DNA from: Eledone cirrhosa
Taxonomy: Eukaryota
DNA: 64,000 nucleotides
Reading direction: 5' to 3'
NCBI GenBank assembly: GCA_964016885.1
Contig: OZ024759.1
Location: forward strand, 34,534,001-34,598,000
Shown here: positions 2,597-63,861 of the stretch, one piece after another
How positions within the stretch are numbered: the stretch's first letter is position 1
Layout: each line of letters starts with the position of its first letter
Program-made: the position numbers and the translations under genes
The notes under the pieces: model-generated
What the model saw: only the letters and a program-made list of their open reading frames with translations
What the model was told of the DNA's origin: nothing
The model's database searches: none

Positions 2597-2735
2597 ATAG
2601 GAACCAGTAAGACCCCGACGGCTGAGCTCAAGCCGTCGGGGTCTTACTGGTTCCTATTACCCACTCTACTACCCCAAGTATTGAGTACTTTGGTGCGTTA
2701 TGGTCCACCTGGTTCCTTACCACATTTCCTCCGTT
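2597..2735 (+). mobile_element. Family A short element in (TA)n (Penelope-like terminal repeat candidate)
   Basis: Perfect 27-bp inverted arms at 2597-2623 and 2631-2657; bulged hairpin at 2663-2686; homologous copies at 37.3, 41.4, 41.6, 51.6 and 62.5 kb. Confidence 0.7.
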
Positions 2736-3199
2736 ATATATATATATATATATAGTTATGTACCTATCTCACTAACTATCTATCTACCTATCTATCTAAC
2801 CATCTATCTACCTGCCTATCTACCTATCTATCTCTTCCGATTGCTACTATTGATCTAGTGTCGCTCATAAGTAAGCTTTGAACTCGACTAATTGTTCAAT
2901 TGCTTTCGTTGCTTTCTACATTTCGATTTGATAGTTTCATTGCAGAGAATCAGTTCTGTGTCAGCAACAGATTCACAGCTAGATTTGAGCCGGCTCATAA
3001 TATATCTTTTTTCCTTTGATATAAATATATATATATATATGTGTGTGTGTGTGTGTATGTGTGTGTGAATATATATATATAGGGGAGGGGGTATAGATAT
3101 ACTATATCGAGAACACACATTCTTTCAAATGAAATTGAGTCTTCCTCTATTTATGTATGTATGTGCGTATAAATTATTACACATACACACACACACATA

Positions 3200-3800
3200 T
3201 TTATATTTATATATATATATATATATATATATATATATATATATATATATATATATATATATATATATATACATGTATGTATGTATATATATATATATAT
3301 ATACATACATGTATGTATATATATATATATATATATATATATATATACATGTATGTATGTATATATATATATATATATACATACATGTATGTATATATAT
3401 ATACATACATATATATATACATACATGTATATATATATATATATATATATATACATGTATATATATATATATACATACATGTATGTATATATATATACAT
3501 ACATGTATGTATATATATATATATATACATACATGTATGTATATATATATATATATACATGTATGTATATATATATATATATATATATATATATATATAT
3601 ATATACATATATATATATATATATATATATATATACATATATATATATATATATACATAAATGTATATATATATATATATATATATACATAAATGTATAT
3701 ATATATATATATATACATAAATGTATATATATATATATATATATACATAAATGTATGTATATATATATATATATATATACATGTATGTATATATATACAT
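3200..3800. repeat. (TA)n microsatellite with catg/tgta interruptions
   Basis: Direct reading. Confidence 0.95.
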
Positions 3801-4309
3801 GCACACATAGGCAGCTAGATATTGGTGGGGAGTGCAGCATAGGTGACGGTGGTGGTGGTGGCAGGCAATGTTAAAATATTGACTAAAAACTAAAAACACT
3901 TCTCAATACAGGCGAACCATGGCTTCCCAATTACGGTATTTTTGGAATCTGTTCAACTCTTCTGATTATGATTCCAAACTTGAAACATTCTTTACCCTCT
4001 TATTCCTTGCTTTCTCATGTGAAAATCACATTTACTGCAAACTCTTTGCTGGGAAATATATTTTTCTCACCACCATCTTCACCATTTCGGCTAAAATCAC
4101 TATTATCATCATCACCGTTATCATAATCCCCCATCATTGCAATCATTCTCATAACCATCACCATCATCATCACTATCATTACCACCATCATCACCTACAT
4201 CACCGCCTACATCGCCACCACCATCATCACTAACATCATCATCATCGCCACCACTGCCATCATCATCACCACCATAACCATCACCACCAGCATTAGCATC
4301 ATCGCCACC

Positions 4310-5217
4310 ACTTGCGTTAAAAGACGCGTTAAAATCACGTGCGTGAAAAGTCACTTGCATTAAAACACTACAATTAAAAATCATTACTATTAAAATACGC
4401 TTACTTTAAAAGAGGCTTACGTTAGAAGACCTTTACGTTATAAAGACACTTGCGTTGATAGACACTTGCGTCAAATTACACTTGCGTTAGAAAACAATTA
4501 CGTTAAAATACACTTACGTTAGAATACATTTAGGTTAGAAGACACTTAGGTTAGAAGACACTTAGGTTTTGAAGACACTTAGGTTTTGAAGACATTTACG
4601 TTTGAAGAGACTTAGGTTAAAAGACACTTAGGTTTGAAGACACTTAGCTTTGAAGACACTTAGGTTTGAAGACACTTAGGTTAGAAGACACTTAGGTTAG
4701 AAGACACTTACGTTAGAAGACACTTAGGTTTGAAGACACTTAGGTTTTGAAGACACTTAGGTTTTGAAGACACTTACGTTTGAAGACACTTGAAGACACT
4801 TACGTTAAAAGACACTTAGGTTAAAGGAAACACTTAGGTTTGAAGGCACTTAGGTTTGAAGACACTTACTTTAGAAGACACTTAGGTTTGAAGACACTTA
4901 CGTTAGAAGACACTTACGTTAGAAGACACTTACGTTAGAAGACACTTAGGTATGAAGACACTTAGGTTTGAAGACACTTAGGTTTGAAGACACTTAGGTT
5001 AGAAGACACTTAGGTTAGAAGACACTTACGTTAGAAGACACTTAGGTTTGAAGACACTTACGTTAGAAGACACTTAGGTTTGAAGACACTTACGTTAGAA
5101 GACACTTAGGTTTGAAGACACTTACGTTAGAAGACACTTAGGTATGAAGACACTTAGGTTTGAAGACACTTAGGTTAGAAGACACTTAGGTTAGAAGACA
5201 CTTAGGTTTGAAGACAC
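4310..5217. repeat. 16-bp minisatellite ttaggttagaagacac
   Basis: Degenerate at the left edge, homogeneous from about 4530. It recurs at 5739-5770, 5997-6140 and 9060-9127. Confidence 0.95.
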
Positions 5218-7293
5218 GACAAAAGTTCGTTGCAATGAGTTGTGAAACACTTGGACCTGAATGAAACCTGGATGTTGAGCATGTCCACCCAGCTTTATTA
5301 ATGGTTTCTAATTTAAATACAAGGCCAGAAATTTGGGAGAAAAGACAAGTTGATTTTCTCGAAAAACGACGGAAAATCGACGAAAAATAGACAGGAAATC
5401 GACGGGAACTAAACGGAACTAGACGCAAAATCGACGGAAACCCGACGGAAAATCGACGGAAAATCGAAGGAAAATAAAGGGAAAATAGACAGGAAATCGA
5501 CGTGAAATCGACGGTAAATAGACGCAACTAGTCGGAAATAGCTAGAAATAGCCGAAGATAGCCGGAGATAGCCGGAAATACCCGGTAATAACCGGAAATA
5601 GTCGGAAATAACCGGAAATAGTCGGAAATACCCGGGAATAACTAGAAATACCCGGGAATAGCCGGAAATAGCCGAAAATACCCGGAGATAGCCGTAAATA
5701 ACCGGAAATGACCGGAAATAGCCGAAAATAGCCGGTTAACACTTAGGTTAGAAGACACTTACGTTAGAAGGGGAAATCGACGGAAAATAGACGCAACTAG
5801 TCGGAAATAGCTGGAAATAGCCGGAGATAGCCGGACATAACCGGAAATACCCCGTAATAACCTAAAATAGTCGGAAATACCCGGGAATATCCGGAAATAG
5901 CCGGAAATACCCGGAGATAGCGGAAATAACCGAAATACACCGGAAATACCCGGAAATAGCCGTGAATAGCCGCAAATACTGGGAAATACCCGGAAAACAC
6001 TTAGGTTAGAAGACGCGTTAGAAGACACTTAGGTTAGAAGACACGTAGGTTAGAAGTCACTTAGGTTAGAAGACACTTAGGTTAGAAGAGACTTAGGTTA
6101 GAAGACACTTACGTTCGAAGACACTTAGGTTTGAAGACACGACAAAAGTTCGTTGCAATGAATTGTGAAACTAAATGGAACTAGCCGGAAGATAGACGGA
6201 TATTCGACGGAAAACCGACGGAAAATAGACTGAAAATCAACAGAAAATCGAAGTGAACTAAACGGAACTAGACGCAAAATCGACGGAAACCCGACGGAAA
6301 ATAGTCGGAAAATCGAAGGAAAATAGACGGAAAATAGACGGAAAATAGAGAGGAAATCGACGTGAAATCGACGGAAAACAGTCGTAAATAGCTGGAAATA
6401 GCCGAAGATAGCCGGAGATAACCGGAAATACCCGATAATGACGGGAAATACCCGGAAATGACCGGAAATACCCGGAAATACCCGAAAATTACCGGAAATA
6501 GCCGGAAATGACCGGAAACACCCGGAAATACCCGAAAATTACCGGAAATAGCCGGAAATGACCGGAAACACCCGGAAATGGCCGGAAATACCCGAAAATT
6601 ACCGGAAATACCCGGAAATTACCGGAAATTACCGGAAATACCCGGAAATAGCCGAAAATTACCGGAAATAGCCGGAACTGACCGGAAATGACCGGAAATA
6701 CCCGAAAATTACCGGAAATAGCCGGAAATGACCGGAAACACCCGGAAATAGCCGGAAATACCCGAAAACTACCGGAAATACCCGGAAATACCCGGAAATT
6801 ACCGGGAATACCCGGAAACACCCGGAAATATCCGGAAATACCCGGAAATAGCCGAAAATACTGGAAATGACCGGAAATAGCAGGAAATACCCGGAAATAG
6901 CTGGGAATGGCGGAAAATACCCGTAAATAGCCGGAAATACCCGGAAACAACCGGATATACCCGAAAATTACCGGAAATAACCGGAAATGACCGGAAATAC
7001 ACGGAAATGACTGGAAACACCCGGAAATGAACGGAAACACCCGGAAATACCCAGAAACAACCGGAAATACCCGAAAATTACCGGAAATAACCTAAATTAA
7101 CCGGAAATACCCGGAAATGACCGGAAATACCCGGAAATAGCCGGAAATAATCGGGAATAGCTGGGAATACCCGGAAATAACCGGAAATACCCGGGAATAA
7201 CTGAAAATACCCGGAAATAGCCGGAAATGATCCGAAATAGCCGGAAATAACCGGAAATACCCGGCAATAGCCGAAAATAACCGGAAATACTCT

Positions 7294-62622: not shown

Positions 62623-62693
62623 TATATATATATATATATATATATATATATATATTTAAGTATGTTTTGAAACAGTGAGCGAGTTTGAAATTT

Positions 62694-62784
62694 GAAATGT
62701 AAGCTTTCACCGTATTTTTGACTAAAGAAATTTTTAGCCTGATAGTAGGTTTTTAGTCAAAAATGCGGTGAAAGCTTATATTTC
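62694..62784. repeat. Imperfect ~35-bp inverted repeat ending in gaaagctta (possible hammerhead 3' half)
   Basis: 62694-62728 versus 62750-62784; lies between TA tracts. Confidence 0.6.
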
Positions 62785-63066
62785 TAATTATATATATTAT
62801 ATATATATATATATTATATATATATTATATATATATATATTATATATATATTAGGTATTAAATTAACAATGAAAATAATAAGAAAGTCAAGTTATTTTAC
62901 CTATACATTTCATTGTTTCACGATCGTTTCGGAGGGTTGATCATATTGACATATTGACTGATCTATAGCAGTGTTAAGCACCACATTGAAAAGGTATCCA
63001 TATATATATATATATATATATATATATATATATATATATATATATATATATATATAATATTCATGC

Positions 63067-63235
63067 TATTAAGTCTAAAACGTGAGTCTTGTTATTCTGA
63101 ATTTTCACAGCCTGATAACCCTGTGATAAACAGTCGAAACTCCAGAGTTACAACACACGGTATTTCACCTTAATAGAATGAATAATAAAACTCTACTTCG
63201 GTATTGAGTGCTCTTTTCTATCAGCCGTCAACCAC
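63067..63235 (+). mobile_element. Family B element
   Basis: ctgataa-ccctgtgataaacagtc-gaaa-ctccagagtt at 63112-63149; diverged inverted arm at 63067-63106; UUCG hairpin at 63190-63209. Confidence 0.65.
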
Positions 63236-63797
63236 ATACATATATATATATATATATATATATATATATATATATATATATATATATATATATAATATGG
63301 TATAAGTATCGTAAGAGAGGAGGAAGCAGTGAGGTACAGCGAAATGCGATACAGATTACTAAATGCCAATAGCCTAAGCATGGTGCCAATAGCCGAAGCA
63401 TGGTGTGCTCAATGCTTGGGTTAGCAGAGTTAAATATATATATATATAAATATCTTATTTTAACGGCTTGTAACTCCTTCATTCATTCATTTACTTATAT
63501 ATATATTTCCTTCCCTCCCTCCTCCGTTTTCCCAATAACTTAGCCAGTTATTGACGCCCTGGGCGGTAGATATATTGTCTTTAAACCGTGGAAATATCCG
63601 AGACCCCCAGTAGACAACTGATGAGGAAAACTCCCCCCGTTCTTGCTTTCTTCTTATTGACACTCCATTTTAAGCTACCTTAACTAGCAACTACACAGCT
63701 AATCATATTCTCCATATATTTTATATATATATATATATATATATATATATTTATTTTTTTTTTTATTTTTTTTTACATTTTTTTGTTTACCTTTCGA

Positions 63798-63861
63798 ATA
63801 CCTGATGATATCACCGGATTTATACGGAACCCGGTCATTGAGATGATTATAGTATAATAAA
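63798..63861 (+). ncRNA. Degenerate type-I hammerhead motif
   Basis: Stem I atac/gtat; CTGATGA at 63802-08; stem II accgg/ccggt; GAGA in place of GAAA at 63840-43; near-palindromic stem III; AATAAA at 63856-61. Confidence 0.55.

Follow-up and report, generated by a model that had tools for sequence, protein, structure and literature searches.

The window, i.e. the whole stretch of 64,000 nucleotides analysed, contains many small elements lying mostly in TA microsatellites. In a sequence-only reading, 15 copies had been listed as dissimilar families (A to D and several singles) with one architecture, comprising a 5' inversion, a hammerhead and a 3' tail. On checking these copies we found the elements to be genuine and the architecture to be shared only in part: an inversion is present in 11 of the 15, a complete type-I hammerhead occurs only in the copy listed at 28306, and what the dissimilar families have in common is a tail hairpin and two alternative 3' ends, not an intact hammerhead. 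Insertions in TA runs stop at either of two fixed positions: the short end precedes the bulged hairpin by 2-8 nt, the long end lies about 30-50 nt beyond it, and the tail is their difference. The elements are the following (those marked "new" were absent from the earlier list).

2600..2734, plus: family A; inverted short-end arm meeting the long-end arm at a stem III junction; hairpin 2663-2686
22203..22246, plus: family A; short-end arm alone, without tail or inversion
25712..25785, minus: A-like, tail alone, between TA runs; hairpin 25759-25782; new
28243..28490, plus: single element with the sole complete type-I hammerhead, without inversion; stem I 28306-28310 pairing with 28357-28361; core CUGAUGA 28311-28317 and GAAA 28345-28348; stem III palindromic; cleavage predicted to follow 28356; near 28420-28445, a tail hairpin in decay
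35391..35550, plus: family B; hammerhead arm in inverted orientation plus a damaged direct hammerhead of Hydra style; hairpin 35505-35524
37344..37430, plus: family A; inverted piece of about 38 nt from the far end of the tail, joining a non-overlapping short-end arm
41142..41374, plus: family C; 147-bp fold-back (98%); hairpin with a long loop 41291-41336
41397..41523, plus: family A; inverted short-end arm adjoining a tail-only long arm; hairpin 41452-41475
41539..41585, no strand assigned: small family C remnant, short-end piece and tail end (by eye); new
41614..41799, minus: family A; minus-strand long-end arm head-to-head with a short-end arm; hairpin 41662-41685; GAAA 41733-41730
44908..45035, plus: family C; the inverted arm is followed by a TA stretch that interrupts the copy, beyond which lie the 3' half of the hairpin and the tail end
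45058..45160, minus: candidate element related to 62694 (similar tails, p 0.004), without hairpin
50361..50690, plus: family D; fold-back; GAAA, palindromic stem III, decayed core; hairpin 50615-50634
51574..51750, minus: family A; minus-strand long-end arm (hairpin 51622-51645) joining a short-end arm
62505..62621, plus: family A; long-end arm alone, hairpin decayed
62656..62790, no strand assigned: the element listed at 62694; fold-back of one long and one short arm, without tail hairpin
63057..63239, plus: family B; inverted short-end arm, direct damaged hammerhead, hairpin 63190-63209
63295..63433, minus: tail-only element; hairpin 63407-63430 with a compensatory A-U to G-C change; new
63794..63904, plus: single element (listed at 63798), likely a short-end arm; CUGAUGA, GAGA replacing GAAA, 4-bp stem I; without inversion or hairpin

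The existence of dissimilar tiny families was upheld for A, B and C by alignment and by self-BLAST of the masked window, which recovered family A at 2600, 37391, 41397, 41614 and 62505, an additional A-like piece at 25731 that had not been listed before, family B at 35429 and 63113, and family C as 41135/41324 paired with 44900/44986. The A copies 22203 and 51574 were outside the self-BLAST output, yet they can be aligned to other A copies; family D has one copy within the window. Alignments of whole tails between families are mostly non-significant. By eye, a likeness is seen between the upstream part of family A and the 62694 element.

Inverted copies comprise A 2600, 37344, 41397, 41614 and 51574, both copies of B, both of C, D and 62694 (the inversions of 37344 and 44920 were judged by eye from sister copies), while 22203, 62505, 28306 and 63798 have none. 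Long and short ends are present in all four families, and the arms are unequal, with the tail on one arm only. The centre of inversion varies between copies: in C 41142 it is the 5' edge of a hammerhead with a CAGAAGA core, and in 37344 and 41397 the two arms do not overlap at all. Copy 2600 is folded back within stem III. The fold-back centre of copy 41614 was considered as a native stem II and rejected, since the read consensus diverges there, which makes it a junction.

The proposed association with TA repeats withstood comparison with a SINE-like control: 19 elements were scored, and 30 of their 38 ends are no more than 6 nt away from a run of (TA)4 or longer, compared with five of 20 ends (10 copies) near (TA)4+ in the control (Fisher p 1.5e-4), although the test is partly circular, as many boundaries were placed at TA runs; three of the elements came from listing islands between TA runs. 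With copy 41614 as the mapping reference, reads (X21) have loose ends of TA at 41617 (5,468 reads) and at 41694 and 41700 (1,645 and 1,860 reads), which confirms both family A ends across many copies.

Hammerhead motifs

Every family had been said to show all or part of a type-I hammerhead, and for A to D, 28306 and 63798 this is true to very different extents. A strict descriptor gave no match in the window. With a relaxed one the motif at 28311 ranked highest (score 17.5; 30 shuffles average 0.13 matches at 16 or more), followed by the minus arm of family C (15.5), with one change in the core (CAGAAGA); below 14 the counts resemble those of shuffles. Rfam returned no match on 28240-28500 and only miRNA models among the matches listed for the whole window (150 of 404), and it is insensitive here, because it also missed the hammerheads of three relatives described below (L118, L119 and L121). 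Minimum-energy folds gave no three-way junction, and the translated 68 nt upstream of 28311 had no significant match.

The canonical motif is complete at 28311 and damaged in B, C, D and 63798: family B has near-cores and no stem I, and in D the CUGANGA has decayed although stem I, GAAA and stem III are kept. Of family A there is just the half comprising GAAA, a 6-bp stem III and GUC; its lack of the CUGANGA half, remarked on in the sequence-only reading, was borne out, CTGANGA being absent upstream of all eight arms checked (six copies). Most copies would be inert, since damage or truncation affects the majority of the hammerheads. The short stem I and palindromic stem III resemble those of the minimal hammerheads of metazoan Penelope-like elements (PLEs), where scattered single motifs and opposite-strand pairs have also been described and ascribed to truncated PLEs; unlike those, most hammerheads here are decayed or halved, and stem III of family A is 6 bp long and lacks a 5' core beside it (PMC4209133). 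In B and C stem II is flanked on both sides by one additional base, as in many rows of the Hydra clade of PLEs in File S2 of PMC8557442. A Hydra family of Octopus bimaculoides is listed in that paper, and no window hammerhead agrees by eye with the Hydra-1_oBim row.

The tail hairpin

Families A, B, C and D have in common, where the tail begins, a predicted bulged hairpin of the form RCUC-3 bp-loop-3 bp-UY-GAGY; it is absent from 62694, 45058 and 63798. The pattern, which was drawn from these same copies, has nine matches in the window against 0.15 expected, including two in previously unlisted pieces, and 75 of 77 stem positions are paired across 11 hairpins. Six matches to a relaxed pattern at 42.8-43.2 kb were discarded as one chance match reiterated by an 82-bp satellite. 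For a model built only from five hairpins of relatives found by protein similarity and of stubs next to them, the seven best window matches are tails of A and B, the four family A matches being weak (E 0.10-0.53); C, D, 28306 and 62553 were unmatched at E up to 10. Formal covariation is thin (two of six pairs, three cells, on a model-fitted alignment).

Judged from sequence, the hairpin also occurs in such Penelope elements of other organisms. Among the six new Hydra consensuses of PMC8557442, compared by eye, it is clear in two, altered in one and not evident in two, the tail of the remaining one being outside the comparison. In the main text of that paper the word "hairpin" does not occur and a tail hairpin is not mentioned, and the papers searched yielded no description of such a hairpin conserved next to the inner start. 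What would be new is a small RNA motif kept across unalignable families and distant hosts, fixed a few bases from the inner start site of reverse transcriptase (RT).

Relatives with coding sequence

A pattern combining CUGAUGA with the hairpin retrieved 117 metagenome loci, which represent few families, include duplicates and are selected for an intact CUGAUGA. The full hammerhead filter was passed by 72 of them, GAAA and the stems not being part of the search pattern, and Hydra-type coding sequence, i.e. that of Hydra-clade Penelope elements, is present in 12. Published diagnostics of this clade are just one open reading frame (ORF), RWK, DKT, a CxCX5C linker and, C-terminally, a GIY-YIG domain without CCHH (PMC8557442). 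One locus, L010, comprises an entire element in which RWK, DKT, CxCX5C and CxxC/CxH are all present, and its hammerhead agrees by eye with the Penelope-1_NV row of File S2 of PMC8557442; a partial tandem forming a pseudo-LTR before the ORF was seen only here. In four loci found by protein similarity alone, the hairpin follows the ORF-linked hammerhead in two, whereas the other two run out into TA at their short ends; three stubs neighbouring these loci have hairpin stems that are changed yet paired. An inverted arm occurs in 34 of 85 related loci, 31 of the 34 ending 2-11 nt before the hairpin motif. ORF-linked relatives are mostly tiny stubs as well, severed immediately 5' of the hammerhead; in 30 of 36 copies the match extends no more than 14 nt upstream of the core.

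These relatives lend good support to the Penelope origin suggested earlier and allow it to be narrowed to the TA-targeting Hydra clade. As the window is without coding sequence, clade membership is something that we infer: the best tblastn match has E 0.65 and the best profile match E 6, with no RT or endonuclease remnant, in agreement with the sequence-only reading, and no window family is joined by sequence to an ORF, the link consisting of shared RNA motifs and layout. The family A pattern had no match in metagenomes, the hammerhead and hairpin pattern none in viral contigs, and protein searches of viral contigs gave no relative. Pfam has no family for L010 and none relevant for 14 aligned relatives, and a PDB search by sequence gave no match.

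Origin of the repeats

The repeats are most likely broken-off tail ends of Hydra-type Penelope elements, a known kind of genomic debris. More precisely, they are likely to be 5'-truncated 3' ends of several Hydra-clade PLEs, which would have entered TA microsatellites via two separately primed reverse transcriptions. The GIY-YIG endonuclease of the element would nick both strands of the TA target; RT, positioned by the hairpin, would begin cDNA at two places on uncleaved RNA and usually halt within the hammerhead or slightly 5' of it, and head-to-head joining of both short cDNAs would give the inversion. Family A would follow the same pattern, halting before any CUGANGA. Self-priming has also been proposed for insertion (PMC3846280). 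However, the arms of 37344 and 41397 do not overlap, a layout that a single self-folding cDNA could not produce, which favours the two-primer route.

Inversion, hammerhead and tail in TA repeats are already published Penelope biology. The Hydra clade has (TA)n insertion, small type-I hammerheads near the 3' end, truncated inverted copies and a one-sided tail, as here; in contrast, the window holds only stubs without an ORF, and its tails are about 55-85 nt rather than the quoted 30-40 bp (PMC8557442). For the Poseidon element PAc of Anolis, two RT start sites bound the tail, both strands are cut and extended, and cleavage of the RNA is unneeded; two start sites, an AT-rich target, uncleaved RNA and initiation at a stem-loop would be common to both, although PAc belongs to another clade and its AC-rich stem-loop, from one element, is set beside the window hairpin by description (PMC11167929).

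The earlier suggestion of non-autonomous or retrozyme-like units is mostly unneeded, since ORF-linked relatives are tiny stubs too. It retains some room for family A (perhaps with the 62694 type), whose master may have lost the CUGANGA half and kept the hairpin, to be copied in trans by a Hydra-type protein. We regard this as improbable, though not negligibly so. In its favour, besides the missing CTGANGA, five arms begin within a few nt of one place, and reads and contigs running past 41749 carry no sense-strand CUGANGA in 30 letters, about 46 nt from GAAA. Family A is also abundant, one copy matching 13,690 contigs (X1) and, among the 12.5 million reads of X21, about 19,600. Yet sharp 5' stop points are also found in ORF-linked families, and because the run-on consensus agreement is only 0.45-0.50, with one readable contig (organism B), a core may lie farther out than 46 nt, stem II then being long. 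A drop in depth near 41741 coincides with AATT from a common variant; it probably reflects cutting during library preparation rather than a boundary, and was dropped as a truncation hotspot.

Non-LTR retrozymes, which are PLE-derived, non-coding and carry type-I hammerheads of like size, replicate via self-cleaved circular RNAs, and monomers dispersed from their arrays have been described (bioRxiv 10.64898/2026.07.22.740005). That the window elements are such monomers is very unlikely: retrozymes are tandem units with complete hammerheads, whereas no tandem array was seen among the first 150 of 288 tandem-repeat rows, in 42200-44400 or by self-BLAST, only one of the 15 copies has a complete core, and copies pass the predicted cut site to stop at the Penelope short and long ends. 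TA-targeting DNA-transposon MITEs, the inverted repeats of which would mimic hairpins, have slightly less still to commend them. Inverted repeats and TA flanks would suit them, and the arm start of 62694 resembles what we take to be a transposon end, but the arms are unequal, the inversion centre is variable, four of 15 copies lack an inversion, and relatives with the same layout are joined to an RT ORF; for A to D this reading is already contradicted. In the best reading the elements are neither tandem retrozymes nor MITEs.

Within the Hydra-clade reading, the hairpin likely marks the place where RT would start copying. A bolder proposal, which we hold only tentatively and think rather doubtful, is that it serves the whole clade as an RT docking site and ruler, similar to a telomerase template boundary and the real cis-requirement for mobility of Hydra-type elements, with family A a very abundant ribozyme-less passenger keeping only the hairpin. 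If so, the ruler would fix both start sites and hence the tail. The choice of internal start sites and the formation of tail and inversion are open questions in Penelope, for which the cited papers ask for in vitro work, and the hairpin offers a precise mutational target. Used as a short query, it also picks up elements of Hydra type for which Rfam and Pfam are blank.

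Short elements, hammerheads and TA runs

The window is AT-rich and contains 391 TA runs; about half of it is simple or tandem repeat, 33,199 of its 64,000 bases having been masked. The sequence has the character of animal DNA, and its SINE-like repeat suggests a possible likeness to octopod genomes. BLAST of the masked window against itself yielded families A, B and C of short elements, together with fold-backs at 2600, 41142, 41694, 50373 and 62700, and alignment added two more members of family A, at 22203 and 51574. The sequence-only reading had proposed a shared architecture for these families, for family D and for some single elements, comprising a 5' inversion, all or part of a hammerhead ribozyme and a 3' tail. 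The inverted arm is present in 11 of the 15 copies listed there and is lacking in those at 22203, 62505, 28306 and 63798. The sole exact hammerhead in the window, with CUGAUGA, GAAA and three stems, is located at 28311 (score 17.5; shuffled sequences gave a mean of 0.13 matches at 16 or above). The second-ranked one, on the minus arm of family C, carries one core change, those of B, D and the single element at 63798 are damaged, and family A exhibits only one half (GAAA, a 6-bp stem III and GUC). In line with the CUGANGA half having been described as missing from the family A copies here, no CTGANGA was found upstream of eight arms checked in six copies. No remnant of a reverse transcriptase (RT) or endonuclease was found in the window either, in agreement with the initial reading.

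The association with TA microsatellites was upheld against a SINE-like family (unit of about 190-220 bp, at least nine copies): 30 of 38 element ends lie at TA runs vs 5 of 20 ends of SINE-like copies, in a comparison that is partly circular. The SINE-like copies include:

1244-1389, SINE-like copy
9849-10060, SINE-like copy
14319-14542, SINE-like copy
18673-19022, SINE-like copy
34951-35121, SINE-like copy
49957-50332, SINE-like copy
53778-53997, SINE-like copy

An 88-bp fold-back at 9348-9435 (93%), with a TA run on its left side, is built from a SINE-like piece and may have arisen when the machinery of the short elements inverted a SINE. At 41873-41958, a CT-rich flank of about 25 bp is duplicated in inverted orientation on either side of a TA run. 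A tandem array at 42662-43432 (82-bp unit, 9.5 copies, 94% matches) contains in its unit what we take to be a tRNA B-box-like word, and may derive from amplification of part of a SINE. The window also includes a compound, partly duplicated satellite block at 4390-9127, with units of 16, 10/11 and 27 bp, and a dispersed repeat in two copies (45254-45400 and 50746-50894).

The family A core may lie further upstream. Beyond 41749, within the copy at 41614-41799, the sequence is continued by 1,295 and 1,035 reads (sets X21 and X22) and 172 contigs (set X1), in poor agreement (0.45-0.50), and in one contig of organism B the roughly 46 nt next to GAAA contain no CUGANGA on the sense strand. By eye, this contig looks like the central part of the 62694 element. 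An abrupt drop in depth near 41741, at an AATT created by a common variant, is likely a library cut site. The fold-back centre of 62694 (62713-62742) is similar to the sequence upstream of family A, taken from the loose end at 41749 in set X5, and in both of them the strand that does not carry the GAAA of that arm has a CUGANGA-like 7-mer.

Two end points and a hairpin in the tail

Each insertion of families A, B, C and D has two arms that stop at different points, a short end 2-8 nt upstream and a long end about 30-50 nt downstream of a bulged hairpin. Reads on the copy at 41614-41799 break into TA at the long end (41617; 5,468 in X21 and 6,032 in X22) as well as at two positions of the short end, 41694 and 41700 (1,645 and 1,860 in X21), which indicates that both ends of family A recur across the genome.

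The hairpin consists of RCUC, three pairs, a loop, three pairs, UY and GAGY, usually followed by RCU. This motif occurs nine times in the window vs 0.15 expected, with a pattern derived from these same copies. Whole tails of different families mostly gave no significant match when aligned. Pairing is kept at 75 of 77 stem positions over 11 hairpins, six from the window and five from metagenome loci found by protein search (L118-L121), with inner stems as different as UAC/GUA, UGC/GCA, UAG/CUA, CUC/GAG and UGG/CCA. When a covariance model trained solely on those five hairpins was run on the window, its seven best hits were tails of B (two) and tails of A or A-like pieces (five), at E 0.001-0.53; 63400 came tenth, and C, D, 28306 and 62553 were missed. 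Covariation is thin, with two of six pairs and three cells changing on both sides in an alignment fitted to the model, with 18 distinct rows.

Probable relatives in the Hydra clade

A pattern of CUGAUGA, spacer and hairpin, in which neither GAAA nor stems were required, matched at least 117 metagenome loci (from 23 of 64 parts of the data) and none in viral sequences. Although GAAA and stems were not asked for, 72 of the 117 passed a full hammerhead filter, and 98 have GAAA and UH at a fitting distance, a few of them probably by chance; these 98 form 15 groups with duplicates and are therefore not independent. Twelve of the 117 carry coding sequence of one protein family. The protein has more than 2,000 relatives with an E value of at most 1e-20. 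One locus, L010, spans a complete unit (about 2.5 kb) with an ORF that contains RWK, DKT, CxCX5C and CxxC/CxH, which according to section 11 of PMC8557442 are diagnostic of the Hydra clade of Penelope-like elements, characterized there by canonical hammerheads and (TA)n insertion. Judged by eye against File S2 of that paper, the L010 hammerhead equals the Penelope-1_NV row, and a second group of loci agrees with Hydra-2_aMil.

The hairpin was checked independently in four loci recovered by protein search alone. L118 and L119 have the ORF, then the hammerhead, then the hairpin. The copies joined to the ORF in L120 and L121 break off into TA at their short end; three stubs close by have hairpins whose inner stems differ but pair. 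The records are titled as bacterial MAGs, yet they contain Hydra-type elements and TA repeats, and this sequence is likely animal host DNA within those assemblies. Among five consensuses in the file of PMC8557442, inspected by eye, Hydra-2_Amil and Hydra-1_Ajap show the hairpin clearly and Hydra-1_Crog has an altered form; for Hydra-1_Amil and Hydra-1_Obim it is not evident.

The element layout and TA targeting are already published (available text of PMC8557442 and PMC4209133). The hairpin is not mentioned in the main text of PMC8557442 or described in the available parts of PMC3846280, PMC6962438 and PMC13282606, and no description was found by literature searches, which covered openly accessible material and not figures, paywalled articles, Repbase, supplementary files on bioRxiv or the sequence file of PAc. 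The elements apparently belong to a known kind, with one testable RNA feature seemingly undescribed.

Insertion and the origin of tiny copies

According to the available text of PMC11167929, a Poseidon element has both strands of its target cut and then extended; its RT begins at two internal sites that bound the tail and lie near a stem-loop, and ribozyme cleavage is not required. The window elements would follow a similar route, with both target strands cut and extended from two internal RT starts, both set by the tail hairpin, and with RT halted by the hammerhead region. The arms at 37344 and 41397 do not overlap, which is consistent with the head-to-head joining of two cDNAs primed separately, and not with a single cDNA copying itself, as suggested in the available part of PMC3846280. 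Near-perfect overlapping fold-backs, e.g. 41142, are compatible with either the two-primer or the self-copying route.

Among the relatives, counted without copies cut within the hammerhead, since the pattern needs an intact core, an inverted arm is present in 34 of the 85 loci having enough upstream DNA, and in 31 of these 34 it ends 2-11 nt 5' of the hairpin motif. Upstream of the core, 30 of 36 copies in the largest group match the ORF-linked locus L019 for at most 14 nt, and the remaining six for 172-285 nt. The short copies share no further upstream sequence, except for duplicates and their own inverted arm. In the window, B and C invert close to this point as well. As relatives with ORF-linked copies are mostly stubs, tiny size needs no separate non-autonomous element of the kind initially suggested. 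Upstream of the hammerhead in L033, L050, L076 and L099, short pieces are reiterated where the inversions join, which suggests that the template was switched repeatedly at the 5' edge of the hammerhead.
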